DNA of 64,000 nt from an uncultured bacterium (GCA_902800055.1 CADCCW010000007.1:3788-67787); one strand, 5' to 3'; positions 3,834 to 63,956 are shown, counted from the first letter of the stretch. A program made the numbers and translations. The notes: generated from the sequence alone by a model not told the origin.

Positions 3834-3906
3834 AACACACGGATTGGTTCGCGACTACGTCGCTCACAGATGGCGAAGGTCGTAGACCTGAGCAAATCAG
3901 TGTGTT
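3834..3906 (+). repeat. hairpin repeat copy A (about 73 nt; AACACACGGATTGG ... CAAATCAGTGTGTT arms)
   Basis: Near-identical to 15960-16032. The inner 41 nt (GTTCGCGACTACGTCGCTCACAGATGGCGAAGGTCGTAGAC) are identical in both copies. The arms have 2 mismatches in this copy. Lies 70 nt after the P1 stop. Confidence 0.8.
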
Positions 3907-3955
3907 ACAACTATTCTCCGCCCCTCGCCGCGCCTTGCGCGCGTGCGCGATAATT

Positions 3956-3964
3956 TGGTATAAT
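3956..3964 (+). promoter_or_regulatory. extended -10 promoter (TGGTATAAT), leaderless ACT-domain gene
   Basis: The hexamer ends 6 nt before ATG 3971 and there is no SD in between. Confidence 0.6.
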
Positions 3965-3970
3965 ACCCGC

Positions 3971-4411
3971 ATGCAAATCAGACAGATATCGATATTTCTC
4001 CAGAACCAGCCCGGGCAGCTCAGCCAGATCTGCCGCGCTTTGGCCGACGCAGACATCAACATCGCGACGCTTTCGCTCGCCGACACCAGCGACTTCGGCA
4101 TCGTCCGGATGATCGTGGATGACCACGAGCGCGCCAAGGACGTGCTTGCCGCGGCCGGTCACGCGGTCAACGTGACCGAGGTGGTCGCCGTCTGCGTGCC
4201 GGACCGTCCGGGCGGCATGGCCGGCGTGATGCAGGTCCTCGACCGCGCCGGCGTGGACATCGAGTACAGCTACGCCTTCGCCTTCCACAAGGGCGAGAAG
4301 GCGGTGCTGGTGTTCCGGTTCGACGACAACGCCGCCGCCGCCAAGGCGCTGGCCGACGCCGGCTACATGACGCTGAACGAGGAGGAGGCGGTCGCCTCCG
4401 CCGCGCAGTAG
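3971..4411 (+). CDS. ACT domain-containing protein (two ACT repeats)
   Basis: MQIRQISIFLQNQPGQLSQICRALADADINIATLSLADT... and a second VCVPDRPGGMAGVMQVLDRAGVDIEY repeat. The ORF-track start at 3902 would translate the promoter (IIWYNT). Confidence 0.8.
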   Translation: MQIRQISIFLQNQPGQLSQICRALADADINIATLSLADTSDFGIVRMIVDDHERAKDVLAAAGHAVNVTEVVAVCVPDRPGGMAGVMQVLDRAGVDIEYSYAFAFHKGEKAVLVFRFDDNAAAAKALADAGYMTLNEEEAVASAAQ

Positions 4412-4421
4412 CCCCACGGCC

Positions 4422-15946: not shown

Positions 15947-15959
15947 TGTTTGAGTGTTT

Positions 15960-16032
15960 AACACACGGATTTGTTCGCGACTACGTCGCTCACAGATGGC
16001 GAAGGTCGTAGACTAGAGCAAATCCGTGTGTT
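15960..16032 (+). repeat. hairpin repeat copy B (perfect 14-bp arms AACACACGGATTTG / CAAATCCGTGTGTT)
   Basis: Same element as 3834-3906. Starts 14 nt after the ACP-2 stop. Flanks (TTTGAGTxTTTAAC on the left, TAxAACTA on the right) are also shared. Confidence 0.85.
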
Positions 16033-16041
16033 ATAACTAAA

Positions 16042-16076
16042 CACGAGCCACGAATCACGAACCACGAAGCACGAAA
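16042..16076 (+). repeat. tandem heptamer array CACGAAN x5
   Basis: CACGAGC CACGAAT CACGAAC CACGAAG CACGAAA. Related arrays are at 38909-38922, 45401-45435 and 51289-51323. Confidence 0.85.
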
Positions 16077-19752: not shown

Positions 19753-19761
19753 TGGTATAAT
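19753..19761 (+). promoter_or_regulatory. extended -10 promoter (TGGTATAAT), leaderless fhs
   Basis: The hexamer ends 7 nt before ATG 19769. Confidence 0.6.
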
Positions 19762-19768
19762 ACAGCCT

Positions 19769-21532
19769 ATGAAACTAGATCCAACGAAGATGAAGGACTG
19801 GGAGGTCGCCGAGGCCGCCGAGGGTGGAATGCGCCCGGCGGCAGATCTCCTGGCCGAACTGGGGGTTGAACAGGGCGAATGGGATGCCTACGGCACCTAT
19901 CTCGCCAAGGTGGACGCGACGAAGGTGCTGCGGCGTCTCGGGGAGAAGAAGCGCGCGAAGTACATCGACGTCACCGCCATCACCCCGACTGCGCTCGGCG
20001 AGGGCAAGACCACGACGACGCTCGGGCTCGTCGAGGGGCTCGGCCGCCTCGGCAAGCGCGTGATCGGCTGCGTGCGCCAGCCTTCCGGCGGCCCGACCTT
20101 CAACATCAAGGGGTCCGCGGCCGGCGGCGGGCTCGCCCAGGTGATTCCGCTGACCTCGCTCTCGCTGGGGCTGACCGGTGACATCGACGCGATCACCAAC
20201 GCCAACAACCTGGCGATGGTGGCGCTCAACTCGCGCATGCAGCACGAGCGCAACCACGACGACGCCTGGCTCGCCGAGCGCGGGCTGAAGCGGCTCGACA
20301 TCGACCCGGAGCGCATCCAGTTCCGCTGGGCGATGGACTTCTGCGCGCAGGGGCTGAGGAACATCGAGATCGGCCGCGGCGGCAAGCTGGACGGCTTCAA
20401 CTGCAATTCCGGCTTCTACATCACCGTCGCCTCCGAGGTGATGGCGATCCTCGCGATGAGCGCCGACCTCGCCGACCTCCGGGCGCGGCTCTCGAAGATA
20501 GTCGTCGCCTACTCGAAGTCCGGCGCGCCGGTGACGACGAAGGACCTCGAGGTCGACGGCGCGATGTGCGCGCTGCTCGTCAACGCGATCAAGCCGACGC
20601 TGATGCAGTCCATCGAGGGCCAGCCGGTGTTCGTGCACGCCGGGCCCTTCGCCAACATCGCCATCGGACAGAACTCGGTCGTCGCCGACCGGCTTGCCTG
20701 CGCGCTCGGCGACTACGTGGTGACGGAGAGCGGCTTCGCCAGCGACATGGGCTACGAGAAGTTCTGGAACATCAAGTGCCGCTGCTCGGGGCTCAAGCCC
20801 GACGCGGTGGTGCTGGTGGCGACGGTACGCGCGCTCAAGGCGCACGGCGGCGCGCCCAAGGTGAAGGCGGGGCTGCCGCTCGACCCGGCGTACACCACCG
20901 AGAACCTGGAGCTGCTGGAGAAGGGCTGTGACAACCTGCTCGCGCACATCGACATCATCCGCCGCTCGGGCGTGCAGCCGGTCGTCTGCCTCAACGCGTT
21001 CTACACCGACACCCCGGCCGAGCGCGCGCTGGTGAAGTCCTTCGCCGAGCGCGCCGGCGCGGCGTTCGCCGTCTCCGACCACTGGCTGAAGGGCGGCGAG
21101 GGCGCGCTCGAGCTCGCCGAGGCGGTGGTGAAGGCGTGCAGCGAGCCGAACTCGTTTGAATACCTCTGCGACCTCGACGAGCCGATCTCGGCGCGGATCG
21201 AGAAGCAGGTGAAGGAGGTCTACGGCGGCGACGGGGTGGACTACGAGCCCGCGGCGCTCGAGAAGCTCCGGCGCTTCGAGGCTGACCCCGAGACCGCGCG
21301 GCTCCCGGTCTGCATGGCCAAGACGCAATACTCGCTTTCGCACGACCCGGCGCTCCTGGGGCGGCCGAAGGGCTGGCGGCTGCCGGTCAAGGACATCCTC
21401 ATCTACAGCGGCGCGGGGCTGCTGGTGCCGGTCGCCGGCGAGATCAAGCTCATGCCCGGCACCTCCGCCTCGCCCGCCTACCGCAAGATCGACGTCGACG
21501 TTGAGACCGGCCGCGTGCGCGGGCTGTTCTGA
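19769..21532 (+). CDS. fhs: formate--tetrahydrofolate ligase
   Basis: MKLDPTKMKDWEVAE..., TPTALGEGKTTTTLGL P-loop, and conserved C-terminal KLMPG/PAY region. 587 aa. Confidence 0.93.
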   Translation: MKLDPTKMKDWEVAEAAEGGMRPAADLLAELGVEQGEWDAYGTYLAKVDATKVLRRLGEKKRAKYIDVTAITPTALGEGKTTTTLGLVEGLGRLGKRVIGCVRQPSGGPTFNIKGSAAGGGLAQVIPLTSLSLGLTGDIDAITNANNLAMVALNSRMQHERNHDDAWLAERGLKRLDIDPERIQFRWAMDFCAQGLRNIEIGRGGKLDGFNCNSGFYITVASEVMAILAMSADLADLRARLSKIVVAYSKSGAPVTTKDLEVDGAMCALLVNAIKPTLMQSIEGQPVFVHAGPFANIAIGQNSVVADRLACALGDYVVTESGFASDMGYEKFWNIKCRCSGLKPDAVVLVATVRALKAHGGAPKVKAGLPLDPAYTTENLELLEKGCDNLLAHIDIIRRSGVQPVVCLNAFYTDTPAERALVKSFAERAGAAFAVSDHWLKGGEGALELAEAVVKACSEPNSFEYLCDLDEPISARIEKQVKEVYGGDGVDYEPAALEKLRRFEADPETARLPVCMAKTQYSLSHDPALLGRPKGWRLPVKDILIYSGAGLLVPVAGEIKLMPGTSASPAYRKIDVDVETGRVRGLF

Positions 21533-31684: not shown

Positions 31685-31693
31685 TGGTATAAT
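31685..31693 (+). promoter_or_regulatory. extended -10 promoter (TGGTATAAT), near-leaderless DUF2723 gene
   Basis: The hexamer ends 9 nt before ATG 31703. Confidence 0.55.
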
Positions 31694-31702
31694 ACACAGG
31701 TT

Positions 31703-34700
31703 ATGAAGGACAGGTTTTTCTCAAAGCTGGACTGGGCTGCGTTCTGGACGGCCACGGTCGCCACTTTCGCGGTGTATTTCTACACCCTCGGGCCATCCGT
31801 GGGGCTGGAGGACTCGGGCGAGCTCGCCACCGCCGCCGCCAACCTCGGCGTGCCGCATCCTCCTGGGTATCCGTTCTGGACCTTCTGCTCCTGGCTTTTC
31901 TGCAAGGCGTTCTCCTTCGTCACCTACATGGGCCATCCGACGCCGGCGTGGTGCGTCTCGCTCTGCTCGGCCGTCTTTGGCGCCTTCGCCGCGGGCTGCA
32001 CGGCGATGCTGATCTGCCGCTCGGGGCGGGACTTCGTCGACGGCGAGGAGGGGCCTGGCGCGTGGCTCTGCTTCGGCGGCGGCGTCGCCGGCGCGCTGAC
32101 CTTCGCGCTTTCGCCGGTCGAGTGGTCGCAGTCGACGATCGTCGAGATCTACTCGCTCAACGCGCTCTTCCTGATGTGGGTGTTCCTGCTGTCCTACCGC
32201 TGGATGCGCCGGCCGTCCGACAAGATCCTCTGGACGACGGCCTTCGTCTTCGGCCTCGGCCTCACCAACTACCAGGTGCTTTTGTTCGCGATCGTGCCGC
32301 TCGCGCTTGTCATCGCGATGAAGAACATCGGCATGTTCCGGGACGTGTTCATCTACCTCACCCCGGTCGCGCTCACCTACCAGGTGCTGCAGATCGGCCA
32401 GCTCGTGCGCGCCGACCGCGTGATGAGCGCGGACGCGATCAACAAGCACCTGCCGCTGAAGGCGGCGACGGTGCCGTCCACCACGGTGCTGGTCCTCGGC
32501 CTTGCGGCTATCGTCGTGTCCATCGCCGCCGCGGCGTTCCTGAGCCGCCGCGGCAGCCGCGAGCGTGCGCGCAAGGTGGCGCTCTTTGGCGGCGTGGGCG
32601 GCGTCGTGCTGATGCTCGCGTCGATGTATATCTTTTCGTCGATTTCGGTGTGGGGCGGGGCGGACCTCGAGCTTGCGCCGCTCGTAGAGCCGTGGCGCTA
32701 CCTGCTCGTGGCCGCGTGCGCGGCAGGCTCGGTCGTCGCCGCGGCGCTGGCGGCGCTGCGTCCGGCGGAGGATCCCGAGCCGGACGGGTTCGCCGCGCGC
32801 GTCAAGGCGCAGTTCTGCCGCGAGCTCTGGATCGCGGTCGCGCTCGCGGCGCTGGCGGTGGTGTTCGCGACGATGGTGCCGCAGGCCGGCGACGGCGGCT
32901 ACCTGGGGCCGAAGTATCCCTGGGGCAAGTCGACGCTCGTCTTCGTCCTGGTGCTGGCGGCGCTGTTCGCGATGTGCTCCTCGACGCCGCGCGGGCTCTC
33001 CTTCGCGGTGCCGGTGGCCGGCCTCCACATCGCGGCGTTCGTGCTCCTCTCGCGCGGTGCGCTCAACGGGCTCACGCATCCGACCACCTGGTACTTCTGC
33101 TGGCCGGTCGCCTGGAACTTCGCGCTGCTGGCGCTTTCGGTGCTGACGTTGCCGAACGGGCTCAGTGTCGCCGGCGCGGCGTTCTTCGCGCAGCTCGGGG
33201 TGAGCTTCTACGCCTACATGCCGATCGTCTCCGACCTCAGGAACCCGCCGATGAACTGGGGCTACCCGCGCACCTGGGAGGGCTTCAAGCACGCGATCAT
33301 GCGCGGCCAGTACGAGGCGATCGGCTTCCAGCTGCCGAAGTGGGGCGCGATTCTCGAGTACTTCAAGGACGTGCGGGTGCAGTTCACCGACGTGATGATC
33401 CCGTTCGCGCTGGTGCCGTTCGTCGCCGGGCGTTGGATCGTGAGGAAGGAGAACCGCAAGGCGTTCTGGCAGTGGATGGTGCCGGTGCTCGTGTGCTTCC
33501 TCCTGATGAGCGTGCTGCTCGTCGGCCTCGCGAACGTGAAGGGCGACCTGCAGGACGGCTTCATCCAGAAGGTGAAGTTCATCTCCTCGCACGCGATGAT
33601 CGCGCTCTGGATCGGCTACGGCCTCGTCTTCGCCTGCGCGTTCGCGCTTCGGAAGGCGGGCGAGCGCGGGCTGCTCGCCGGCGGCAGGGTGCGCCTCGCC
33701 GCCTTCGCCGCCGCCGCGCTGATGATCGCCGTCTCGTTCTTTGCGCCGCTCGTCGACAACTACTGCGGCGACTACCGGCTCGGCGTGAACGAGGTCGCGT
33801 TCAAGCTCGGCGGTTCGGAGCAGAACGGCCACACCTTCGGCTGGCAGTTCGGCGCCTACCAGCTCGAGGGCGCGAAGGCGATCAACGAGCAGATCGAGGC
33901 CGACGAGGAGCCGCTTCCCGACCCGACCTGGCCGCCGCCGATGGAGAAGTACTCCATCTTCTTCGGCGGCACCGACCCGGGCCGCTTCGTGCCCACCTAC
34001 ATGATCTACTCGGCGCTATTTCGCCCCGACGTCTACCTCATCACCCAGAATGCCCTTGCCGACGACACCTACATGTCGGTCGAGCGCGACCTCTACGGCG
34101 ACGAGATCTGGATTCCGTCCAAGGAGGACTCTGCCGAGGCGTTCAACGTCTACGTCGACGAGGTGCAGCGCGGCGTGAGGCCGGCGAACGGCGACGTGAA
34201 GATCGAGAACGGCCGCGTGCAGGTGACGGGCGCGCTCGGGGTGATGGAGATCAACGGCATCCTCACCAAGATGATGCACGACCACGACCGCCTGCGCCAC
34301 GCGTTCTACGTAGAGGAGTCGTACGTCATCCCGTGGATGTACCCGTACCTGAGCCCGCACGGCCTCATCATGAAGATCAACGCGGACCGCACCCCCTACG
34401 ACGCGAAGACCGCGGCGAAGGACCGCGACTTCTGGGACTGGTACGTGCGGCGGCTCCTGAACGACCCCGCCTACCGGCGCGACTTCGCCGGACAGAAGAG
34501 CTTCTCCAAGCTCCGCGCCGCCATCGCCGGGCTCTACATCAAGCAGGGCCGCTACCGCGAGGGATCCCAGGCCTTCCGCGAGGCGTGCCTCCTCTACCCC
34601 GCCTCGCCCGAGGCGACGTTCCGCTACGCCCAGGAGTGCCTGATGCCGTTCCGGAAGTGGAACGAGACGCTTGAGCTGATGGACTACACCGACCTCATCG

Positions 34701-37965: not shown

Positions 37966-37974
37966 TGGTATAAT
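37966..37974 (+). promoter_or_regulatory. extended -10 promoter (TGGTATAAT), leaderless
   Basis: Starts 13 nt after the recJ stop. The hexamer ends 7 nt before ATG 37982. Confidence 0.55.
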
Positions 37975-37981
37975 TCGCATC

Positions 37982-38791
37982 ATGATTGTCCTTATTGCAG
38001 CTTTCGCCGCCGGGTGCGGCGGTTTCGCCGCGGCCCGCTGGGGCTTCGGCGCCGGAATCGGCTGGAGCGTGTTCTGGGGGATACTCTCTCTGGTAGTCGC
38101 CCAGTTCGTCCTCGGGTTCCTCGTCCAGCGCCGCGTGAAGGCGGTGATGAACGCAGTGCAGTCCATCCTGCTCGCCGGGCAGAAGCGCCTGCAGCAGAAG
38201 ATGCAGCGCTGGCAGATGCGCCCGCCGGGCTCGGTGCAGGCCGCCCAGAAGGAGATCTTCGCCGACACCAAGGTGTTCGTGCAGGACGCGCTCGCGAAGG
38301 TGGAAGAGCTCAACCGCTTCCGCCTGCTCGTACCGATGATGGACCGCCAGATCGCCACCGCCAAGGTGCAGCTCGCCTGGATGATCAAGGACTTCAAAAC
38401 CGTCGACGCGCTGATGCCGAAGGTGCTGCTGGTGGACCCGATGATGACCGCGATCAAGATCGCGCGCCTCCACATGACCGGCGGCGACTTCAAGGAGATC
38501 GAGAAGCTCTACCGCAAGGGCGTCGGGCGCGTGCGCTACAACGGCAACGTCCTCCTCGCCGCGGAGATGAGCTGGATCCAGGTCAAGCGCGGCGACGCCG
38601 ACGGCGCGTTCAAGACGCTCACCGAGGCGCTGAAGAAGAGCGACGACGCGACGCTGAAGCGCAACCACGAGTGCCTGATGAACAACCGCGTCGGCCACTT
38701 CTCCAACTCCGGCCTCGGCGACCAGTGGTACTCGCTGCTCCTCGAGGAGCCGAAGGTCCACGTCCAGCGCCAGCGCAGCGTCTACCGCTGA
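37982..38791 (+). CDS. hypothetical membrane protein (two N-terminal TM helices, helical repeat C-terminus)
   Basis: MIVLIAAFAAGCGGFAAARWGFGAGIGWSVFWGILSLVVAQFVLGFLV, then a helical, TPR-like region. No named family recognised. Confidence 0.6.
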   Translation: MIVLIAAFAAGCGGFAAARWGFGAGIGWSVFWGILSLVVAQFVLGFLVQRRVKAVMNAVQSILLAGQKRLQQKMQRWQMRPPGSVQAAQKEIFADTKVFVQDALAKVEELNRFRLLVPMMDRQIATAKVQLAWMIKDFKTVDALMPKVLLVDPMMTAIKIARLHMTGGDFKEIEKLYRKGVGRVRYNGNVLLAAEMSWIQVKRGDADGAFKTLTEALKKSDDATLKRNHECLMNNRVGHFSNSGLGDQWYSLLLEEPKVHVQRQRSVYR

Positions 38792-38798
38792 GGCGGCG

Positions 38799-38858
38799 GC
38801 AGAAGAAGCGGAGGCTGTTTTTAACGCAAAGAACACAAAGAACACAGAGGGCTCTTTG
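38799..38858 (+). repeat. conserved 5' block of the P3/P4 leader
   Basis: GCAGAAGAAGCGGAGGCTGTTTTTAACGCAAAGAACACAAAGAACACAGAGGGCTCTTTG matches 51161-51220 at about 55 of 60 positions. Confidence 0.85.
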
Positions 38859-38863
38859 GAAGT

Positions 38864-38894
38864 GTTTGAGGGTTTGAGTGAAGAGTGTTTGAGT
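38864..38894 (+). repeat. tandem octamer GTTTGAGN (x3 plus one degenerate unit)
   Basis: GTTTGAGG GTTTGAGT GAAGAGT GTTTGAGT. TTTGAG also flanks both hairpin repeats. Confidence 0.7.
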
Positions 38895-44570: not shown

Positions 44571-44606
44571 CGCGGCAGATTACGCGGCAGATTGCGCGGC
44601 AATGTC
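44571..44606 (+). repeat. tandem 12-mer CGCGGCAGATTN x3
   Basis: CGCGGCAGATTA CGCGGCAGATTG CGCGGCAATGTC. Similar units (TGCGGCAAGTTG CGCGGCAGGTTG) lie at 41987-42011. Confidence 0.7.
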
Positions 44607-44659
44607 TTGATTATTCCGTTGTTCTACCAAGCGGTGAAGTTGCGGAGTGGGAGTTTGGT

Positions 44660-45010
44660 TTATTGCCCGTATGGGTTGGATGTGTCGTAGACTGGATTTG
44701 CTGAGAGGCCTCTGACGCTCCTCGAATACCTGAACCATCGCACTTCCATCACATGGTCGTGGACTATGTAATAGACCGTGTAGTTGCCGACTTGAATCGC
44801 ATAGTATGGCTGCTGAACGTCGGGCGGACGGTATCGTGGAGCAGTCACGAGCGGATGGTCGAGCATATTGTCGATGGCGGAATAGACATCTGCTATGAGT
44901 TTGTCTGCCGCAATCGGGTTGCGAAGTTGCTGTTCGATGTAGGCGACCGCTCGGTCCAACTCCTCGATGAACGTCGGACGGATGTCAAGCGTGTACTTTT
45001 CTCCGAGCAT
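44660..45010 (-). CDS. type II toxin, RelE/ParE family
   Basis: YTLDIRPTFIEELDRAVAYIEQQLRNPIAADKLIADVYSAIDNMLDHP...YYIVHDHVMEVRWFRY is a ParE/RelE-like pattern. Lower-GC region. Confidence 0.8.
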   Translation of the reverse strand: MLGEKYTLDIRPTFIEELDRAVAYIEQQLRNPIAADKLIADVYSAIDNMLDHPLVTAPRYRPPDVQQPYYAIQVGNYTVYYIVHDHVMEVRWFRYSRSVRGLSANPVYDTSNPYGQ

Positions 45011-45400: not shown

Positions 45401-45435
45401 GACGAACAACGAGCCGCGAATCACGAACCACGAAT
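45401..45435 (+). repeat. tandem heptamer array (G/A/C)ACGA(A/G)N x5 abutting a promoter
   Basis: GACGAAC AACGAGC CGCGAAT CACGAAC CACGAAT, ending 1 nt before the TGATATAAT extended -10. Confidence 0.8.
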
Positions 45436-50500: not shown

Positions 50501-52759
50501 ATGGGCATTATCAAAGACATCCACGGCGACATCGAGCGGGAGGCGGCGCTTCTCCTCGATAGATACCGTGATGCACTGATGCTGGAGGCGCTCACGCTTT
50601 CCTCCGGTGACTCCCATGCCGCCGAGGAGCTGGTGCTCCAGACCTTTGAGGCGTATCTCTTCGGCCGCGAGCGGTTCGACCCTTCGAAAGGCGAGCTGCT
50701 GCCGTGGCTGCGTGGCATCCTACGCAACATCCACGGCAAGGCCGGGCGTGGCAAGTCGGTGAAAGCTGTATCTTATCTCTCGCAGGACGAGCTTGAGCTT
50801 ATCAGCGAAATCCGCCGGCAAGACAACTCCACCGACGAGGAGATACTCTCCAATTCCGATTCCGAAGTGATCCGCAAGGTGATAGAGGCGCTGCCGGACA
50901 AGACGAGGCGGATAATCGTCTTGCGCTGTTTTGAGTCCGCCTCCTTCGGGGAAATCGCCCGTTTGCTCGGCATCAGCGAGATTTCGGTGAAGAATCGGTT
51001 CTATTACGCCCGCAAGCTTTTGGCGCGGCGGCTCGGCAAGCTCCTGGGCCGCGCACCCGCCATTGCGCTTGGCGTAATTCTCGCCGGGGCCTCGCTCCTC
51101 TACGCAGCGGCGGTTGTCACCGGCCTCGCCCCATCGCCGTTCGCTGCGGCGGAGCCCGCGGCAGAAGAAGCGGAGGTTGTTTTTAACGCAAAGAGCACAA
51201 AGGACACAGAGGGGGCTTTGACAGGATTGCCTGCCGTGGGGACAGACCCCGAGCCTGCCGTCTCAAGTCTCTCGTCTCAAGCCCCGGCCTCGAACCACGA
51301 ATCACGAACCACGAACCGCGAAACCAATGGGGACAGTCCCCAGCAACCCGAGGTGATAACTGCCAATTCTGAAACCAACAACGAGGAAAACACCATGAAC
51401 ACCCAATTGGTCAAATCTGCCGCGGTCAAGGCACTGGCGGCGGGCGCAATGCTCGCGGCGGCGGCAGTTCCGGCGAAGAGCACGCAGGCGACGGATCTGC
51501 CATCTGGCTACACCAAACTTGAGTACATCCAGGGTGACGGCGCGAGCGCCCGCCTCATAACCGACTACACCCCCAATCCGCAGACAGACAAAATCGAGGC
51601 GGTAATCGAGTGGCCAGCGGAGACAATCGGCGGAAACCAGCAAGTCTGGTGTGCGCGAGGCACTAGCGGGACGGACAAAACTTATACATTGTTCGCAATC
51701 GGTTCCAATCTTCGTTTTGACTACAACAAAACACGGGGAGATCTGCTTACGCCAGAAATCTCCGAGGGGGTGAAATACACCGTCACCGCCGATCGCTACA
51801 TGTTTACCTGGTCGGGCGGCAACGGGCAGACTCATACTGAAAGCACCATTTTTCAGTCGACAGGCTACCCATTAGTGCTGTTCGCGTCCTATGCCAGAGG
51901 TGTCAACACCGAAGTCGTAAACTATGGCAAGCACCGGCTATATTCCTTCAAGGTCTGGCGCTCGGATGAACTCATTCACGATTTCGTACCGTGCAGAGAC
52001 CCGAACGGCGTGGCGACGATGGTTGACGTCTGCGACAATCCCGCGACGCTGACGGTCCAGGGGACATTCATCGCCCCTGGCGACAATGGAAAGTTGCCAG
52101 CTGGATACACCGAGGTCCAGTATATTCAGGGTAACGGTGAGGACGCCCGCATCGTCACCTCTTATATTCCGCATCCGCAGACAGACAAGGCCGAGGCGGT
52201 GGTCGAGTGGCCGTCGTCGGTCGGTGATGCCTTGTCAGGAAATCAGGGTGTATGGTGCGCACGAGGCTCGACAACATCGACCGCATCCTGGACGCTGCAC
52301 ATGCTGGGCAATAGCGGCGGCAAGTTCCGATTCGACTACAACTCGGCATCAGGCAACCTTCTTGAGCCTGCGCTTTCCACAGACGTGAAGTACACCGTAA
52401 CGGCCGACAGGAATGTGGTTTCATGGTCGGGCGGCAACGGGCAGACGCACACGCCGGTTATTGGCTTTACAGCTGCCGGCGATCGAATGGTGCTTTTCGC
52501 TGTGTATAGCGGCGGAACAATCGATACATATCCAGGCAACTACGGCAAGCACCGGCTCTACTCCTTCAAGGTCTGGCGGTCGGGTGAGCTCATCCACTAC
52601 TTTGTGCCGTGCAAGGATCCGAACGGCGTAGCGACGATGGTTGATATTTGCTACAACGCGGCACTGACCATAGATGGCACCTTCACCGCCGGTCCCGAAG
52701 GGCACTACTACGACGATAAGCTCTTCAGGCCAGCGGGTACGGTGTATTACATTCTATAG
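50501..52759 (+). CDS. continuous ORF: ECF-type sigma-70 factor, hydrophobic helix, repeat-encoded linker, then P4 module protein
   Basis: Region 2 is LVLQTFEAYLFGRERFDPSKGELLPWLRGILRN. Region 4 HTH is RRIIVLRCFESASFGEIARLLGISEISVKNRFYYARKLL. No in-frame stop until 52757-52759. Whether one or two proteins are made is unresolved. Confidence 0.5.
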   Translation: MGIIKDIHGDIEREAALLLDRYRDALMLEALTLSSGDSHAAEELVLQTFEAYLFGRERFDPSKGELLPWLRGILRNIHGKAGRGKSVKAVSYLSQDELELISEIRRQDNSTDEEILSNSDSEVIRKVIEALPDKTRRIIVLRCFESASFGEIARLLGISEISVKNRFYYARKLLARRLGKLLGRAPAIALGVILAGASLLYAAAVVTGLAPSPFAAAEPAAEEAEVVFNAKSTKDTEGALTGLPAVGTDPEPAVSSLSSQAPASNHESRTTNRETNGDSPQQPEVITANSETNNEENTMNTQLVKSAAVKALAAGAMLAAAAVPAKSTQATDLPSGYTKLEYIQGDGASARLITDYTPNPQTDKIEAVIEWPAETIGGNQQVWCARGTSGTDKTYTLFAIGSNLRFDYNKTRGDLLTPEISEGVKYTVTADRYMFTWSGGNGQTHTESTIFQSTGYPLVLFASYARGVNTEVVNYGKHRLYSFKVWRSDELIHDFVPCRDPNGVATMVDVCDNPATLTVQGTFIAPGDNGKLPAGYTEVQYIQGNGEDARIVTSYIPHPQTDKAEAVVEWPSSVGDALSGNQGVWCARGSTTSTASWTLHMLGNSGGKFRFDYNSASGNLLEPALSTDVKYTVTADRNVVSWSGGNGQTHTPVIGFTAAGDRMVLFAVYSGGTIDTYPGNYGKHRLYSFKVWRSGELIHYFVPCKDPNGVATMVDICYNAALTIDGTFTAGPEGHYYDDKLFRPAGTVYYIL
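51161..51220 (+). repeat. conserved 5' block of the P3/P4 leader (copy inside the sigma ORF)
   Basis: About 55 of 60 identity to 38799-38858, including TTTTTAACGCAAAGA. Confidence 0.85.
51289..51323 (+). repeat. tandem heptamer array CACGAAN x5
   Basis: CTCGAAC CACGAAT CACGAAC CACGAAC CGCGAAA. A second 7-nt array (GTCTCAA GTCTCTC GTCTCAA) lies at 51260-51280. Confidence 0.8.
51395..52759 (+). CDS. secreted protein P4 (internal start): two tandem DFVP jelly-roll-like modules
   Basis: GAGGA SD plus ATG 51395. MNTQLVKSAAVKALAAGAMLAAAAVPA is nearly identical to the P3 start. Two modules run LP(S/A)GYT..(E/Q)YIQG(D/N)G ... YGKHRLYSFKVWRS.ELIH.FVPC.DPNGVATMVD. C-terminus is GTVYYIL*. Confidence 0.65.
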   Translation: MNTQLVKSAAVKALAAGAMLAAAAVPAKSTQATDLPSGYTKLEYIQGDGASARLITDYTPNPQTDKIEAVIEWPAETIGGNQQVWCARGTSGTDKTYTLFAIGSNLRFDYNKTRGDLLTPEISEGVKYTVTADRYMFTWSGGNGQTHTESTIFQSTGYPLVLFASYARGVNTEVVNYGKHRLYSFKVWRSDELIHDFVPCRDPNGVATMVDVCDNPATLTVQGTFIAPGDNGKLPAGYTEVQYIQGNGEDARIVTSYIPHPQTDKAEAVVEWPSSVGDALSGNQGVWCARGSTTSTASWTLHMLGNSGGKFRFDYNSASGNLLEPALSTDVKYTVTADRNVVSWSGGNGQTHTPVIGFTAAGDRMVLFAVYSGGTIDTYPGNYGKHRLYSFKVWRSGELIHYFVPCKDPNGVATMVDICYNAALTIDGTFTAGPEGHYYDDKLFRPAGTVYYIL

Positions 52760-52790: not shown

Positions 52791-52796
52791 ACGCGC

Positions 52797-53672
52797 ATGG
52801 CAAAGGGAATATTTTCCGCGGCGGTTGCGGCGGCGATCTGCTGCGTTGTTGCCGTGGGCTGCAGGACGCGCGCGCCGCTGATGGTCGCGCACCGCGGCGC
52901 CGGCGACCTGGAGATGCCGGAGGCGTCGCTTGCGGCGTACTCGAACGCCGTGGCGACGGCATGCGACATCGTAAAGCTCGACCTGTTGGAGACGAAGGAC
53001 GGCGTCGCGGTCATGGGGCACGACGTGGACCTGTATCGGGCGATGAAATGGGGCGCCCGCGTATGCGACGTGACCTACGACGAAATCGTCGCCCGCGGCT
53101 TTCTCGTCCCGGTCGGCGGCTATGCGCACGAGCGGATCGTGCGGCTGGACGAGGCGCTGGCCGTCGTCAAGGACATTCCGCAGTTCTGGATCGACTTCAA
53201 GCGGTTCTCGCCCAAGTTCGCCGAGAATGTCATCGCTACCTTCAGGCAGGCCGGCATCGACGAATCGCGGCTGATGGTCGCCACGTTTTCCGAGGCGGCG
53301 CTCGCCTATATGCGCGAGCACCACCCCGCGATCCGCCGCGTTGGACACGTCGGCATCTGGCAGGACGAGGAGCGTGGCCTTTGGCACAGCACCGTCGGCG
53401 GCTCTTCGCGCACCAGGGAGGAGCAGATCGAGGCGGTGGTCGGCTGGCGCGACCGCTTTGGGCTCTTCGGCGTGAACATGCGCGTCCTCTACGGCATCAC
53501 GACGCCGGCGGACGTTGCCTACCTGCAGCGGCAGGGACTTTGGGTGTCGCTCTGGTTTGTCCAGAGCGCCGAGATGGCGGCCGAGTACCGGGACGCCGGT
53601 GCGGACGCCTTTGTGACCGACCATGTCTCCGAGGCGCGGCGCGGGCTTGGGATTCCGCCTCCGTCCAGGTGA
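52797..53672 (+). CDS. glycerophosphodiester phosphodiesterase family lipoprotein
   Basis: Lipobox VAVGC. MVAHRGAGDLEMPEASLAAYSNAV (HR..G..PEN-like GDPD motif). GADAFVTD near the C-terminus. Confidence 0.8.
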   Translation: MAKGIFSAAVAAAICCVVAVGCRTRAPLMVAHRGAGDLEMPEASLAAYSNAVATACDIVKLDLLETKDGVAVMGHDVDLYRAMKWGARVCDVTYDEIVARGFLVPVGGYAHERIVRLDEALAVVKDIPQFWIDFKRFSPKFAENVIATFRQAGIDESRLMVATFSEAALAYMREHHPAIRRVGHVGIWQDEERGLWHSTVGGSSRTREEQIEAVVGWRDRFGLFGVNMRVLYGITTPADVAYLQRQGLWVSLWFVQSAEMAAEYRDAGADAFVTDHVSEARRGLGIPPPSR

Positions 53673-59102: not shown

Positions 59103-59111
59103 ATTATACCA
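59103..59111 (-). promoter_or_regulatory. extended -10 promoter (TGGTATAAT), leaderless kdsB
   Basis: Minus strand reads GGAGTTTGGTATAATACACACATATG. The hexamer ends 8 nt before ATG 59094. Confidence 0.6.
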
Positions 59112-59128
59112 AACTCCAGGGGCGACGG

Positions 59129-60433
59129 TCACATCTTCGCAGCGAGCTCGCGGATGCGGCGCGAGGTGCGGACGGCGCAGAACTGCTTGCCGCACATCGA
59201 GCAGTGGTCGTCGCCGTGCGCTTCGTCGGTGAACGCGCGCGTCTTCAGCCACCGCGCCTTCGCGCGCTCCGGGTCGAGGCAGAGCTCGAACTGGCGGTCC
59301 CAGTCGAACGCCGCGCGAGCGTCGGACATCGCGTCGTCGCGGTCGCGCGCGCCGGGCAGGTGGCGGGCGACGTCGCCCGCGTGCGCGGCGATCTTGTAGG
59401 CGATGCAGCCCTGGTGCACCTCCTCGGCGTCGGGGAGGCCGAGGTGCTCGGCCGGCGTCACGTAGCAGAGGAGCGACGCGCCGTAGGTGGCCGCGGCGGT
59501 CGCGCCGATCGCCGAGACGATGTGGTCGTAGCCGGGCGCGATGTCGGTGACGACGGGGCCAAGGACGTAGAAGGGGGCTTTCCTGCAGACTTCCTGCTGG
59601 CGCTCCATGTTCATCCGGATCTGGTCGAAGGGGACGTGGCCCGGGCCCTCGACCATCGTCTGCACGCCGCGTGCGCGGCAGCGCTCGACGAGCTCGCCGA
59701 GGACGTCCAGCTCGCCGAACTGCGCGGCGTCGGAGGCGTCGGCGAGGCAGCCGGGGCGGAGCCCGTCGCCGAGCGAGACGGTGACGTCGTGCTCGGCGAG
59801 GATGTCCATCACCTCGTCCCAGTTGGCGTAGAGCGGGTTCTCCGCCTTGTTCTCCATCATCCACTCGGCCATGATCGCGCCGCCGCGCGAGACGATGCCC
59901 ATCTTGCGCTTCATCGCCGCGGGGATGTGCTTTAGGAGGAGCCCGGCGTGCAGGGTCATGAAGTCGACTCCCTGCTCGGCCTGGCGGCGGATGACGCCGA
60001 TGAGGAACTTGGGGTCCATCTTCGGGATGTCGCCGAGGAGCGAAATGGTCTCGTAGATGGGCACGGTGCCGAGCGGCTTCGGCGAGGCGTCGAGCATGCC
60101 CTGGCGGATCGTCGCGATCTCGTCCTCGGACGACGCGACCGAGAGGTCCATCACGAAGTCCGCCCCGGCGTCGAGCGCCACCTTGAGCTTCTCGAGCTCG
60201 TCGCCCTTGCCGGAGTGGGTCACGCTGCGGCCGAGGTTGGCGTTGATCTTGGTGGTGAACATCCGTCCCACGCCGACCGGCATGCAGTTGCGGTGAGCGG
60301 GGTTGAGCGGGATCACCGCCTCGCCGGACGCGACGGCGGCGCGCACCGCCTCGGCGTCGAGTCCCTCGTCCTTGGCTACGCGCTTCATCGCGTCCGTCAC
60401 AATGCCCTTGCGGGCCGCCTCAAGCTGTGTCAT
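59129..60433 (-). CDS. thiC: phosphomethylpyrimidine synthase
   Basis: MTQLEAARKGIVT..., GPGHVP, C-terminal CSMCG...C cluster motif. 434 aa. Confidence 0.95.
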   Translation of the reverse strand: MTQLEAARKGIVTDAMKRVAKDEGLDAEAVRAAVASGEAVIPLNPAHRNCMPVGVGRMFTTKINANLGRSVTHSGKGDELEKLKVALDAGADFVMDLSVASSEDEIATIRQGMLDASPKPLGTVPIYETISLLGDIPKMDPKFLIGVIRRQAEQGVDFMTLHAGLLLKHIPAAMKRKMGIVSRGGAIMAEWMMENKAENPLYANWDEVMDILAEHDVTVSLGDGLRPGCLADASDAAQFGELDVLGELVERCRARGVQTMVEGPGHVPFDQIRMNMERQQEVCRKAPFYVLGPVVTDIAPGYDHIVSAIGATAAATYGASLLCYVTPAEHLGLPDAEEVHQGCIAYKIAAHAGDVARHLPGARDRDDAMSDARAAFDWDRQFELCLDPERAKARWLKTRAFTDEAHGDDHCSMCGKQFCAVRTSRRIRELAAKM

Positions 60434-60450
60434 TTTGCTTTCTCCTTTAA

Positions 60451-60554
60451 CCTTTCAACCTTTCAACTTTTCAACTTTTCAACTTTTCAACCTTTCAACC
60501 TTTCAACTTTTCAACTTTTCAACCTTTCAACCTTTCAACCCTTCAACTTTTCAA
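60451..60554 (-). repeat. 13-unit tandem octamer array (mRNA sense UUGAAARG) filling the thiH-thiC spacer
   Basis: Plus strand has 13 contiguous CYTTTCAA units (one CCCTTCAA) from 60451 to 60554. The array starts immediately after the thiH stop (60555-60557). A degenerate 14th unit merges with the thiC SD (TTAAAGGAGAAAG). Confidence 0.95.
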
Positions 60555-61667
60555 CTATATCCTGTTATCCCAGTTCTTGAAGACGACCTCCTGGCCGTTC
60601 GCCTTGATCGCTTCGTAGACTTCCTTCGGCGCGCGGCGGTCGGTGAGGGTGAACTGGGCGACGTCGGCGGCGTGCTCCTTTTCGAGCACGGCGTAGCCGC
60701 CCGGCGTCACGCGCGAGCCGGCGCTCATGTTGTCCGCCGCCACCTGGACGATGTAGTCGCGGAAGGCCGGCGCCTCGCGGGTCGAGACGGTCATGCAGCA
60801 CTGCGGGAAGCAGATGCGGAAGGCGAGCATCATCAGGTCGACGTCGCGCTCCTCGACTTCGCACGGCGGCACGAACCCGCCCTCGACGCGGCAGAAGCGC
60901 GGGAAGGCGAACTGCACCTTCGACTCGTAGCACTCCTTCATGAGGTACAGCGCGTGCGCCGCGAGGCTCGCCGCCTCCCTGCGCCACGGCGTAAGGCCGA
61001 GCAGGAAGGCGCAGCCGAGGATGCGGAAGCCGGCCCTGCCGGCGCGGAGCTGGGTCCAGAGCCGCCATTCGTAGTTGGACTTCGGCCCGGCCGGGTGGAA
61101 GTACTTGTAGCGTTCCTGGTCGTAGGTCTCCTGGAAGCAGGTGAGGGACTCGAAGCCGGCCTCGAACATCGCGCGGTAGCCTTCCTCGGTCTGCGGCGCG
61201 ACTTCGAGCGAGAGGTTGGAGAACATCGGCTTCAGGAGGCGGGCGACGTCGCAGAAGTGCTCGACCGAGTTGACCTTCGGGTCTTCGCCGGCGACGATGA
61301 GGAGGTTGTCGATGCCGCTTGCGCGGATCGCCTCGGCCTCGACGCGGATCTCGTCCAGGGTAAGGTTGCGCCGCACCGTGCCGGTGTGCTCGCGGCGGAA
61401 GTCGCAGTAGCGGCAGTGGTTGACGCAGGTGTTGCCGATGTAGAGGGGGGCGTAGACGCTGACGGTCTTGCCGTAGTACTTGATCCGCGCGAGGCGGGCC
61501 TTTTTGCGCATCGCGTCCATGAAGGGGTACGCGGCGGGCGAGATGAGGTTCAGGAGGTCGAACCAGTCGTGGCGGTCCTTCGCGAGCGACGCCTCAACCA
61601 TCTCCGGCGTCACCTTGGCGAAGTAGTCGTCGACCTGCTCGGCCGTGTATTTCAGCAGCGGGAACAT
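60555..61667 (-). CDS. thiH: 2-iminoacetate synthase (radical SAM)
   Basis: CVNHCRYCDF radical SAM cluster. Length and context between thiG and thiC fit. Confidence 0.9.
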   Translation of the reverse strand: MFPLLKYTAEQVDDYFAKVTPEMVEASLAKDRHDWFDLLNLISPAAYPFMDAMRKKARLARIKYYGKTVSVYAPLYIGNTCVNHCRYCDFRREHTGTVRRNLTLDEIRVEAEAIRASGIDNLLIVAGEDPKVNSVEHFCDVARLLKPMFSNLSLEVAPQTEEGYRAMFEAGFESLTCFQETYDQERYKYFHPAGPKSNYEWRLWTQLRAGRAGFRILGCAFLLGLTPWRREAASLAAHALYLMKECYESKVQFAFPRFCRVEGGFVPPCEVEERDVDLMMLAFRICFPQCCMTVSTREAPAFRDYIVQVAADNMSAGSRVTPGGYAVLEKEHAADVAQFTLTDRRAPKEVYEAIKANGQEVVFKNWDNRI

Positions 61668-61675: not shown

Positions 61676-62440
61676 CTACTTGAAGATGTCCATGGGGCTC
61701 GTCGCGCTCGCGGTGGCGCGGGAGGAGGGCGGACCGGCCTTGAGCGCAATTTCGGCGGCCTGGACGGCGAGGCCGAACGCCTTCGCCATCGCCACCGGGT
61801 CGTCCGCCGCGGCGACCGCGGTGTTGGCGAGGACGGCGTCAGCGCCGAGCTCGATCGCCTCGGCGGCGTGGGAGGGGAGGCCGATGCCGGCGTCGACGAC
61901 GACGGGCACGTGGCTCTGCTCGACGATGATCTCGATCATGTCGCGGGTGCGGATGCCGCGGTTGGAGCCGATGGGGCTGCCGAGCGGCATCACCGCCGCG
62001 GCGCCGGCGTCCTCGCAGTGGCGCGCCAGGACGGGGTCGGCGTTGATGTAGGGGAGGACGACCATCCCGAGCTTCGCGCATTCCCTCACCGCCTCCAGCG
62101 TCTCGACCGGGTCGGGCAGCAGGTAGCGCGCGTCGGGGTGGACCTCGATCTTGATCCAGTTGTAGCCGGCGGCCTTGCCAAGCTTGGCGATGCGCACGGC
62201 CTCGGCTGCGTTGCGCGCGCCGGAGGTGTTGAGCATCACCTCGACCTTCGAGCGGTCGATGACGCCGAGGATGTCGTCGTGCGCGGCGTCGTCCTCGTGG
62301 ACGCGCGTGAGCGCGGTGGTGACGAGCTCGGTGCCGCTCGCCGCGATGGCGGCCTTCAGGAGCTCGCCCGAGGCGAACTTGCCCGTTCCCAGAAAGAAGC
62401 GGCTCGAGAACTTCCTGCCGCCGATGATTAGGTCTTTCAT
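61676..62440 (-). CDS. thiG: thiazole synthase
   Basis: LGTGKF, WIKIEVH (Schiff-base Lys context), VMPLGSPIGSNRGI. Confidence 0.93.
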   Translation of the reverse strand: MKDLIIGGRKFSSRFFLGTGKFASGELLKAAIAASGTELVTTALTRVHEDDAAHDDILGVIDRSKVEVMLNTSGARNAAEAVRIAKLGKAAGYNWIKIEVHPDARYLLPDPVETLEAVRECAKLGMVVLPYINADPVLARHCEDAGAAAVMPLGSPIGSNRGIRTRDMIEIIVEQSHVPVVVDAGIGLPSHAAEAIELGADAVLANTAVAAADDPVAMAKAFGLAVQAAEIALKAGPPSSRATASATSPMDIFK

Positions 62441-62462
62441 TTTTCTTTCCTTTCAAATTTGA

Positions 62463-62588
62463 TTTTTAACACAGAGGCACAGAGACTCAGAGACACAGAG
62501 TTAGAAGCTGGGGTTGCCACCCCAGACCCCGCGCCGAAGGCGCACTCAAAAACCTCTGTGCCTTTGTGCTTATGTGTCTCTTTGTTAT
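62463..62588. repeat. long imperfect hairpin built from CACAGAGN octamers with two internal GC hairpins
   Basis: Left arm is TTTTTAACACAGAGGCACAGAGACTCAGAGACACAGAG (62463-62500). Right arm is CCTCTGTGCCTTTGTGCTTATGTGTCTCTTTGTTAT (62553-62588). Inner hairpins are CTGGGGTTGCCACCCCAG (62508-62525) and GCGCCGAAGGCGC (62531-62543). Confidence 0.8.
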
Positions 62589-62635
62589 GACAAATCATTT
62601 GTGTAGGATCTCTATTGTCGTTTTAGGTTAAAGCG

Positions 62636-63010
62636 TTAGTTGACTATGCGCTTGAATCCGGAAATAAGTGTTTCCTTTCCGAAATTCACAAGCAGCCCCA
62701 AATGCAAATTCATGAGGCGAAGATATGTAAGAGTTTGAATTGCAAAGATCGGATTGTCTTTGTCTGTCGCTTTGCATTCGACAACGACACGCCCCTCCAC
62801 AAGCAGATCGATTCGCAGCGGATCGCCCACGACAACGCCCTTGTAGACTACCGGGACATGAACCTCCTTTTCGACCTTAAAACCTCTTTGTGCCAATTCG
62901 TAGGCAAGCGCATCTTGATACACTGACTCAAGCAATCCAGGACCCCCAAGCGTCCGATGCACAGTTATGGCCGCATCAAGCACCTCCTTGCTGATATCAT
63001 TATCTTCCAT
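62636..63010 (-). CDS. GxxExxY protein (PD-(D/E)XK nuclease fold family)
   Basis: 124 aa. GPGLLESVYQDALAYEL contains G-x-x-E-x-x-Y. Also RIDLLVEGRVVVECK. Much lower GC than its neighbours. Confidence 0.85.
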   Translation of the reverse strand: MEDNDISKEVLDAAITVHRTLGGPGLLESVYQDALAYELAQRGFKVEKEVHVPVVYKGVVVGDPLRIDLLVEGRVVVECKATDKDNPIFAIQTLTYLRLMNLHLGLLVNFGKETLISGFKRIVN

Positions 63011-63017
63011 TTCTGTT

Positions 63018-63054
63018 CTCTGTGCCTCCGTGTCTCTGTGTCTCTGTGTTAAAA
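63018..63054 (-). repeat. CACAGAGN-type repeat upstream of the GxxExxY gene
   Basis: Minus strand reads TTTTAACACAGAGACACAGAGACACGGAGGCACAGAG and runs into the SD/ATG of the GxxExxY gene. Confidence 0.8.
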
Positions 63055-63061
63055 TCTCTCT

Positions 63062-63658
63062 CTATATTTCCTCGCCCAGCAACATTGCGACGACGCTGTT
63101 GGCTTGCATTGCCGCGGCGATTCCGACCCGGGGCGAGGCGGGCGCGGCGCTTTCTCCGACGGCAGTCTCGCCGTCGCCGACGGCGACGATGTTCCCCATC
63201 TGCCTCACCTGCATTGCGTTCGACCGCCCCCAGCCAGCCAGCCCGCTTGCAGTGACGATCCGCTTGCCCGATGGCGCAAGCGCCGCGACAAGCATCGCCT
63301 TTGCCTCGACGACGTCGAATGCCTCGACCACGATGTCGCAGTTGGCGAAGGTTTCCCGCGCCGATGCCGCGTCTAGCCGCAGGTCGACGGAGCGGATGTC
63401 CGCGTCCGGGTCGATCCGGAGCAGGTTCGCCTTGAGCGCCTCTACCTTCTTGAGTCCAAGTTGGTCGCGGAAGAAGAACTGGCGGTTGAGGTTCGACTCG
63501 TTGACGACGTCGAAGTCGACGACGGTCAGGTTCCTTACGCCGGCGCGCACGAGGTGCATCGCGCAGTTGGAGCCGAGTCCGCCGGCGCCGGCGATCCCCA
63601 CTCGCGCTGCTTCAAGTACGGCGCGCTCGCTGGGGGTGAGATAGGTGTTTGCGGACAT
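63062..63658 (-). CDS. thiF: ThiF family adenylyltransferase (ThiS activation)
   Basis: GIAGAGGLGSN nucleotide-binding loop. 198 aa short ThiF/MoeB form. Adjacent to thiS. Confidence 0.85.
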   Translation of the reverse strand: MSANTYLTPSERAVLEAARVGIAGAGGLGSNCAMHLVRAGVRNLTVVDFDVVNESNLNRQFFFRDQLGLKKVEALKANLLRIDPDADIRSVDLRLDAASARETFANCDIVVEAFDVVEAKAMLVAALAPSGKRIVTASGLAGWGRSNAMQVRQMGNIVAVGDGETAVGESAAPASPRVGIAAAMQANSVVAMLLGEEI

Positions 63659-63659
63659 C

Positions 63660-63860
63660 TCAGCCTCCCGCCGTCAGCTTGAACACATCGAGCGCGGCGC
63701 CTTCAGCGAGAATTAGCGCCTGGAGGTCGGATCCAGGCGCATACACCTCGCCGCCGTATTCGACAATCGCCTTGGCCGGGTCCACGCCCCGCGCCGAGAG
63801 AAACTCGGCCACCGTCTTCGCCGTCGTCTCGACGGCCTCGCCTTGATAGACAATGTTCAT
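63660..63860 (-). CDS. thiS: sulfur carrier protein ThiS
   Basis: 66 aa with a C-terminal GG (…FKLTAGG*). Confidence 0.88.
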   Translation of the reverse strand: MNIVYQGEAVETTAKTVAEFLSARGVDPAKAIVEYGGEVYAPGSDLQALILAEGAALDVFKLTAGG

Positions 63861-63863
63861 CTG

Positions 63864-63950
63864 CTTCCTCCGCCGGCATTACCCGGATCAGGTTTTGCGG
63901 GTCTGTTCTCAGCCAAGACGCGCCCTGCGCCCCAGCACCCCGTCGTTAGA
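63864..63950 (-). promoter_or_regulatory. TPP (THI-box) riboswitch
   Basis: Minus strand reads ACGACGGGGTGCTGGGGC...GGCTGAGAACAGACCCGCAAAACCTGATCCGGGTAATGCCGGCGGAGGAAGCAGATG. It contains the conserved GGGGTGC, CTGAGA, ACCTGATC-GGTAATGCC blocks directly upstream of thiS. Confidence 0.9.
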
Positions 63951-63956
63951 TTGTGT

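Follow-up and report, generated by a model that had tools for sequence, protein, structure and literature searches.

Our data show that the spacer between thiH and thiC in a rumen Kiritimatiellae bacterium is filled by thirteen tandem copies of an octamer, and that copy number within this one species ranges from 0 to 13. We consider it probable that the array is a hypermutable octanucleotide VNTR, nearly neutral, which would have arisen by slippage-type duplication of the segment in which the stop codon of thiH and the Shine-Dalgarno sequence (SD) of thiC overlap. Such a spread among strains of one species points to a slippage-prone by-product of the RBS rather than to a dedicated regulatory device. 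It is best explained as belonging to a class of short intergenic arrays that occurs across the clade.

The window, by which we mean the whole 64-kb stretch of DNA that was analysed, derives from a Kiritimatiellae bacterium of the cattle rumen. Named ThiH homologues belong nearly all to Kiritimatiellae/Kiritimatiellia MAGs, 18 contigs from bovine and other ruminant gut metagenomes encode exactly this ThiH protein, and the stretch is present in many rumen sequencing runs. The genome has a G+C content of about 66%, with AT-rich intergenic islands. The thiamine operon lies on the minus strand and starts with a TPP riboswitch (63848-63952; Rfam RF00059, 57.2 bits, above the gathering score), followed by a 66-aa ORF that is putatively thiS by its position before the thiF-like gene (63660-63860), the thiF-like gene itself (63062-63658; PF00899), a GxxExxY (PD-(D/E)XK-like) gene cassette of low GC (62636-63010; TIGR04256), thiG (61676-62440; PF05690 on the identical gene in contig L002), thiH (60555-61667), thiC (59129-60433) and kdsB, which has an extended -10 promoter of its own. 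The calls of thiH and thiC are right. ThiC (phosphomethylpyrimidine synthase, ATG at 60433-60431) scored 607 bits on NF009895; ThiH (2-iminoacetate synthase) reached 367 bits on TIGR02351, 13 below the NCBIfam equivalog cutoff of 380, and its Pfam domains Radical_SAM and BATS agree. Tandem Repeats Finder also detected a second intercistronic octamer array in this operon, (CTCTGTGY)x4 in sense (62469-62500, minus strand), and the SD of thiG consists of a single TTGAAAGG unit (62449-62456, minus strand).

The structure of the operon varies within the species (L001:9100-9230, L004:3100-3254, and an RNA contig of run X25 that joins window position 62445 to 63864). In some strains the TPP riboswitch stands directly before thiG, and thiS, thiF and the GxxExxY cassette are absent from that position. 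The operon also has different neighbours, sigma-70 and HSP33 in L001 and a DDE transposase in L004. In other strains of the species the cassette is absent (empty site L003:5260-5325, L005, L007), and (CTCTGTGY)x4 alone is found there, 4 nt past the thiF stop, between this stop and the AT-rich thiG leader. The cassette of the window is flanked by (CACAGAGA)n arrays, upstream at 63012-63049 and downstream at about 62550-62590, and a compound hairpin lies downstream of it. The last codons of thiF differ between the cassette-bearing and the cassette-less forms. The GxxExxY element has the look of a mobile cassette, one that either targets octamer arrays or gives rise to them; our search of the literature on GxxExxY returned nothing relevant.

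The array proper consists of 13 phased 8-nt units of the sense sequence TTGAAARG (60451-60554, minus strand). Three types of unit, A (TTGAAAAG), G (TTGAAAGG) and X (TTGAAGGG), follow each other in the order A X G G A A G G A A A G G. The first abuts the stop codon TAG of thiH (60557-60555), and the last runs into a degenerate 14th unit, TTAAAGGA (60443-60450, minus strand, direct reading), which overlaps the thiC SD AAAGGAG (60442-60448, minus strand); the ATG follows after another 8 nt, and the whole spacer measures 121 nt. Direct reading and Tandem Repeats Finder thus confirmed what an earlier note on this DNA had described, thirteen contiguous units from the base after the stop to a degenerate SD unit, and the plus-strand order given there (CC CC CT CT CT CC CC CT CT CC CC CCC CT) is that of our minus-strand types; only its limits, 60446-60554, had to be corrected. 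Tandem Repeats Finder reported a period of 8 with 14.1 copies and 92% matches (60444-60555) and, in addition, a 32-nt super-period of 3.3 copies with 94%. A two-unit pattern with at most one mismatch had 12 matches in the window, all of them inside the array, against 0.01 expected, which excludes chance; within the 64 kb this is the one locus with a TTGAAARG array. With head-to-tail 8-nt units in several copies and of high purity, the array has the properties of an SSR or VNTR. It does not have those of an on/off switch, since unit number, in the interval from the thiH stop to the thiC SD, shifts neither a reading frame nor the spacing of a promoter. Each unit can also be read as UUG, two codons and a UGA that is borrowed from the next unit.

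In this species (contigs with a ThiH that is identical or 99% identical to that of the window), we found spacers of 9, 49, 57, 73, 81, 97, 113 and 121 nt, corresponding to 0, 4, 5, 7, 8, 10, 12 and 13 units; all alleles come from short-read metagenome assemblies, in which single unit counts could be collapsed. The flanks are 95.5-100% identical to the window (measured in L001-L010), thiH DNA, compared in six contigs, is at least 98% identical, and in ten contigs whose ThiH protein is 100% identical the spacer lengths are multiples of 8 nt apart. The alleles carry 4 units in L004 (AXAG), 5 in L001 (GGGGG), 7 in L003 and L005 (AGGGGGG), 8 in L010 (AGAGAGAG), 10 in L006 (GAAGGGAGAG; L007 agrees as far as it extends) and 12 in both L008 and L009 (GGGAGGGAGGAG). 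The 13-unit spacer of 121 nt is identical in L002, L142 and the window, which are from different samples. JGI metagenomes provided a second 7-unit allele (L144, AXGAAAG) as well as an array-less one (L143; thiH DNA 98.1% identical to the window), which reads ATT TAA GGAGAAACC ATG, and a Logan contig of run X4 shows this array-less junction for a second time. The array is therefore dispensable. The alleles differ by blocks of 1, 2 and 4 units and have different A/G patterns, which suggests gain and loss of such blocks, as slipped-strand mispairing produces. Both the stepwise duplication that had been proposed from the unit order and the suspicion that copy number differs between strains were thus borne out.

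In a sister clade, with thiH DNA 84-90% identical and ThiC 94%, other sequences occupy the slot. L146 and L149 have three heptamers, TTGAAAG TTCGAAG TTGAAAG, followed by TTTAAAGGAG, and L145, L147, L150, L152 and L154 have 68-140 nt of GGGTCAG/GAGTCAG/GAGTTGG heptamers that are unrelated to the octamer. Every one of these arrays starts at the base right after the thiH stop. More distant relatives (ThiH 65-91%) have no array; thiE, secG, SMC-like or other genes follow their thiH, and thiC lies elsewhere, which indicates that the thiH-thiC junction is young. The leader is thus not conserved in the way of a standby site or enhancer, being absent, shortened or swapped for unrelated arrays, and the slot itself appears to count for more than its sequence. 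Stop and SD overlap in the 9-nt spacer of the array-less allele, so that the sole place where an insertion would spare both genes is between them. Tolerance of insertions only after the stop and before the SD would explain where the arrays start and end without invoking a function. As there is no conserved requirement for sequence or length, an effect on ThiC synthesis would be modulatory at most. In L130 (1708-1833; also in L131 and L132), with a ThiH of 96% identity, we observed a 124-nt thiG-thiH spacer that consists of 9-mer arrays of the GACGGGACA type and their inverted copies of the GTCTCGGCG type, which form an imperfect hairpin, and there thiE, not thiC, follows thiH.

The ordinary SD of the host is GAAAGG(A), and of the 12 GAAAGGA that the window has outside the array, 7 precede an ATG by 1-11 nt. 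The sequence is TTTAAGGAG in the array-less allele; the heptamer allele finishes with TTTAAAG followed by GAG, and most octamer alleles with TTGAAGGAG. Because GAAAGG is the usual SD, the octamer unit is very likely, judged from its sequence, a tandem duplicate of the stop/SD overlap. With a generic 16S tail assumed as the anti-SD (no 16S gene was found in the sequences examined), the predicted pairing energy is -8.5 kcal/mol for G-type units and -3.2 for A-type units, compared with -9.1 for the real thiC SD. An SD-like core, which the earlier note had ascribed to every unit, is indeed the host's GAAAGG and can be affirmed for the seven G- and X-type units, the G-type pairing about as well as the thiC SD, but not for the A-type units, whose duplex with the assumed tail is weak. 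By the same assumed tail the array contains 6 SD-like sites, compared with 3.5±1.5 in composition-matched shuffles, of which 15 of 200 reach 6; the enrichment is weak. SD-like sites were not enriched in the other intercistronic arrays of these thi operons, and in the sister-clade heptamer arrays they fell below the shuffles, so that selection for SD-likeness, as a trait common to the arrays of this slot, was rejected.

We propose that slipped-strand mispairing or unequal exchange would have duplicated the short segment in which the stop of thiH and the 5' half of the thiC SD overlap, converting TTTAAGGAG to TTGAAAGG, and that the array would then have grown in the sole insertion-tolerant slot of the junction, after the stop and before the SD. 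The operon transcript would contain it as an unstructured linker devoid of C, which may set termination on thiH and initiation on thiC up to 121 nt apart, and the spacer probably uncouples translation of thiC from that of thiH. The seven good SD copies in sense, each at 8 nt from a downstream UUG that has a UGA in frame, could affect ribosome traffic, and the repeated occurrence of different arrays at one junction could reflect selection for a longer spacer instead of mutation pressure. The array may be one case of a general habit, by which intergenic DNA of rumen Kiritimatiellae, other bacteria of the PVC superphylum (Planctomycetes-Verrucomicrobia-Chlamydiae) and Bacteroidota would be built from a few 7-9-nt arrays.

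The RNA of the array is predicted to be unstructured, with an MFE z-score of +1.0 and the array unpaired in the centroid. Within 801 nt of context, the pairing probability of the array averages 0.47, compared with 0.59-0.68 in the flanking coding sequence, and the pairing partners are diffuse; an unstructured stretch therefore lies beside the RBS, as at a standby site. The predicted opening energy of the thiC RBS is 6.2-7.2 kcal/mol for 4 to 13 units and 5.3 kcal/mol for 0 units. By this calculation the array would neither free nor hide the RBS, and an improvement of RBS access was discarded as a role because the opening energy is independent of unit number and no lower than without the array. 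No promoter-like or terminator-like site was found in the thiH-thiC spacer, and the array has no Rfam match at the gathering score or at E<=1. A long hairpin of the hmw type or a complementary partner was likewise dismissed, none being predicted for the unpaired array. The units contain neither hairpins nor GGA motifs of the CsrA/Rsm type, GGA occurring only in the terminal SD. One metatranscriptome contig spans the 3' end of thiH, a shorter array and the start of thiC, which is consistent with co-transcription of the array with the operon, DNA carry-over being possible.

TTGAAARG arrays occur far beyond this locus. Scanning one genome per GTDB species for exact (TTGAAARG)x3 gave at least 119 stretches. 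Among the matches listed (119), 56 are from PVC bacteria (17 Kiritimatiellae, 28 Verrucomicrobia-type, 10 Lentisphaerae and 1 Planctomycetales), 41 from Bacteroidota, 11 from other phyla, 9 from high-GC rumen "RUG" MAGs without a taxon label, and 2 from records with uninformative titles, the titles being the basis of this count; the shares were put at about 55% PVC and 34% Bacteroidota. Several MAGs among them carry 4-10 loci, and SRR873605_bin.155 and RGIG10146 have the array on 9 contigs each. The high-GC loci lie mostly between co-directional genes, 19 in sense versus 21 in antisense. The 5' end of the TTGAAARG strand tends to adjoin a stop codon if sense, and the SD and start of the opposite-strand gene if antisense. 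Often the arrays form inverted pairs around a hairpin or stand beside arrays of other units. Around more than 100 of them we found no conserved flanks, terminal repeats or target-site duplications such as would mark REP, BIME or MITE elements. In four rumen runs, 70-317 Logan contigs per run matched a 501-nt stretch around the array and continued into unrelated flanks, and Logan word depth was 441-6105 over the array bins versus 0-85 in the flanks. A phage or mobile-element origin was rejected, as only 5 of 2.9 million viral contigs carry the pattern and flanks are not conserved. The recurrence of the octamer at many loci and in unrelated phyla means that local slippage alone is an insufficient explanation. 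In L083 (about 1062-1117) and L087 (7258-7300), two other MAGs of Kiritimatiellae, the downstream gene may start in or at the end of a sense TTGAAARG array. These starts, of a pth-like ORF in L083 and a lipoprotein-like ORF in L087, were placed by eye, and the automated gene call puts them 138 and 76 nt further downstream. Should the placement by eye be correct, the array could provide not only SD-like motifs but also a start codon.

The earlier note had also named, among possible roles, a ribosome standby or translational-enhancer platform and a binding track for a multimeric RNA-binding protein. A dedicated platform of this sort found no support: an array-less allele exists, the slot in the sister clade has unrelated heptamer arrays that are not enriched in SD-like sites, the predicted opening energy of the RBS is flat across unit numbers, and elsewhere the octamer is antisense as often as sense.

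The window contains several families of intergenic units, with arrays of CTCTGTGY/CACAGAGA, CACGAAY, AGTGTTTG, AACACAAAG and GAGACGCA. Arrays of (CACGAAY)3-5 stand directly upstream of extended -10 boxes at 16042-16075, 45401-45435 and 51291-51322, and likewise at L001:9092-9119 and on the minus strand of L001. Examples are CACGAAT running into ATGATATAAT and CACGAAT running into TATGCTATAAT; in L001 the second of these precedes the TPP riboswitch. (CACGAAY)n occupies the position of a -35 or UP element and may be a promoter-associated repeat. At many genes TTTGGTATAAT is followed within 6-8 nt by an ATG (3950-3972, 19755-19775, 31685-31705, 37970-37985, 52795-52815 and, on the minus strand, 59103-59132); an extended -10 box so close to the start has no space for a leader behind it, which suggests that leaderless mRNAs are common in this Kiritimatiellae genome. 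An element of about 75 nt, AACACACGGATTKGTTCGCGACTACGTCGCTCACAGATGGCGAAGGTCGTAGAC...CAAATCNGTGTGTT, occurs in two copies (3833-3908 and 15959-16033), each flanked by short tandem arrays; it is predicted to form a very stable hairpin (-42 kcal/mol, z -7.2) and has no Rfam match. At 38823-38894, (AACACAAAG)n is followed by the partly complementary (AGTGTTTG)n upstream of a gene whose product starts MNTQVVKSA, and a paralogous start with a similar leader, CAACAACGAGGAWAACACCATGAACACCCAA, is found at 51375-51400. A 12-nt tandem repeat, CGCGGCAGATTA, is present in 2.6 copies (44571-44601) downstream of a gene end, beside a low-GC patch at 44605-44808. Non-coding structural variants in Planctomycetota are often intergenic tandem repeats (PMC9426551). 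In the literature we found no description of such arrays for Kiritimatiellae or Verrucomicrobia.

The closest comparison is with hmw1A and hmw2A of Haemophilus influenzae, where (ATCTTTC)n repeats lie in the transcribed 5'-UTR and are polymorphic in copy number through slippage (PMC12721329). There, a G-rich partner pairs with the repeats, which make up the left arm of a long hairpin; RNase III cleaves it, and expression falls with length (PMC12721329). Both systems have a short tandem repeat of 7-8 nt with highly polymorphic copy number upstream of an ORF, transcription of the thiH-thiC array being expected from its operon context. The latter, however, is intercistronic within an operon and has no predicted partner or hairpin. 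With simple-sequence contingency loci and VNTRs (reviewed in Zhou et al. 2014, as cited in PMC9426551) the array shares short head-to-tail units, copy-number variation between strains and presumed slipped-strand mispairing. Classical contingency repeats, which act as on/off switches, are found within ORFs or in the interval from the -35 to the -10 box, whereas this array is placed between a stop codon and an SD. The host further resembles cyanobacteria in having several families of 7-8-nt tandem units that are intergenic and without assigned function; as in cyanobacteria, they are probably transcribed and may be dispersed over many loci of the genome. Such STRR (short tandemly repeated repetitive) heptamer families in cyanobacteria were reportedly described by Mazel and colleagues in 1990; PMC2670836 also mentions them. 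The present arrays differ from them in phylum (PVC and Bacteroidota) and in their units, and for one locus a local SD origin, at the strength given above, and an allelic series are documented. Ribosome standby sites, as in tisB, compensate for a structured RBS and are conserved. Like these and like A/U-rich translational enhancers such as S1-binding leaders, the array is an unstructured purine/U-rich stretch directly upstream of an SD, with SD-like motifs inside; unlike at standby sites, the RBS is predicted to be equally accessible without it and the array is dispensable.

Several other explanations have to be weighed against the nearly neutral VNTR. It is possible, though in our view doubtful, that the array is an evolvable rheostat, in which unit number tunes translation of ThiC relative to ThiH through upstream SD-like decoy or standby sites and through a distance that breaks coupling, and slippage resets the ratio. 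The large allelic series of 0-13 units within one species would suit this role, as would co-transcription, if the RNA-run contig across the thiH 3' end, array and thiC start does not stem from DNA carry-over. Further points in its favour are the identity of GAAAGG with the native SD, the pairing of G-type units (-8.5 versus -9.1 kcal/mol for the real SD, with the assumed anti-SD), the stop/SD overlap of the array-less allele, which is typical of coupled genes, and the precedent of graded control by a transcribed heptamer repeat (PMC12721329). Against this, the predicted RBS accessibility does not depend on unit number, nothing like the long hmw hairpin or its complementary partner is predicted, and the sister-clade arrays in the slot are not enriched in SD-like sites. 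A ribosome relay, in which ribosomes re-initiate from unit to unit via tandem minigenes until they reach the thiC SD and so keep coupling across 121 nt, seems very unlikely. The geometry for it can be read in the mRNA: a UUG directly follows the UAG of thiH, the units read UUG-AAA-RGU-UGA (Met-Lys-Ser/Gly-stop), each stop overlaps the next UUG (UUGA) with an SD-like GAAAGG, its strength taken from duplex energies, 8 nt upstream, and the last minigene stop (UAA or UGA) falls just ahead of the AGGAG of the thiC SD. This is a reading of sequence, however, and it needs the sense orientation, while half of such arrays elsewhere are antisense and the sister-clade heptamers lack the minigene geometry. 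Moreover, three-codon minigenes, as known from the lambda bar minigenes, promote peptidyl-tRNA drop-off, which would be costly.

The wide occurrence of the octamer raises the alternative that the array was templated from other TTGAAARG arrays, by gene conversion, template switching or a mobile process of another kind, which would seed intergenic slots in PVC bacteria and Bacteroidota. In support of this, TTGAAARG is present at many loci per MAG in several phyla that share the rumen, a restricted vocabulary (ACACAGAG, CACGAAC, TTGAAARG) recurs within the 64 kb and across MAGs, the arrays are often inverted pairs around hairpins, and they mark junctions at which gene order differs between lineages. 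Conserved flanks, terminal repeats and target duplications are absent, however, the matches in 2.9 million viral contigs number only 5, and a local SD-derived origin suits the thiH-thiC locus well, so that we regard dispersal as a quite improbable source of this array. A combined scheme, in which a PVC/Bacteroidota process actively seeds 7-9-nt arrays and sense TTGAAARG acts as a chain of SD, UUG and UGA minigenes or SD decoys whose slippage-variable length sets the ThiC:ThiH translation ratio, as an evolvable rheostat between two cistrons of a riboswitch-controlled operon, appears unlikely to us. The regular 8-nt periodicity and the resemblance of TTGAAA to a -35 hexamer could hint at a promoter element or a binding track for a multimeric DNA- or RNA-binding protein, and antisense copies of the unit adjoin an extended -10 box in L172, as (CACGAAY)n does elsewhere. 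We hold this to be extremely improbable, given that the spacer has no -10 box or promoter-like site and no GGA or CsrA-type motifs, that length is unconstrained between 0 and 13 units and that unrelated sequences fill the slot in the sister clade. Finally, array length could in principle be an error of short-read assembly, a possibility that the earlier note had itself raised. All data are from such assemblies, a 32-nt super-period can confuse de Bruijn graphs, and Logan k=31 contigs, which cannot resolve array length, break inside the array. The 121-nt spacer is nevertheless identical in three sequences, L002 and L142 being from other samples than the window, and different assemblers were used; other alleles are replicated too, and alleles are distinguished both by their internal A/G pattern and by flanking SNPs linked to them. 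The identity of alleles from independent samples and assemblers, each with its own flanking SNPs, argues against assembly noise and leaves this objection with hardly any credibility. We therefore return to the hypermutable, nearly neutral VNTR. A dispensable array that is replaced in the sister clade and has no orientation preference elsewhere speaks against a dedicated standby site, enhancer or binding platform.

For the thi operon itself, a strain-variable spacer is a modest finding. Its allelic series, from 0 to 13 units together with unrelated arrays in the same slot, represents a natural experiment on repeat length versus translation. On a broader scale, intergenic DNA of rumen Kiritimatiellae, other PVC bacteria and Bacteroidota is, as it appears, largely assembled from a few short tandem-repeat units. 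Such arrays change within a species, mark differences in gene order, adjoin promoters and start codons and break short-read assemblies. This has consequences for MAG quality and for strain typing, where the loci are ready-made VNTR markers, and it bears on the evolution of regulatory spacers in poorly studied phyla.
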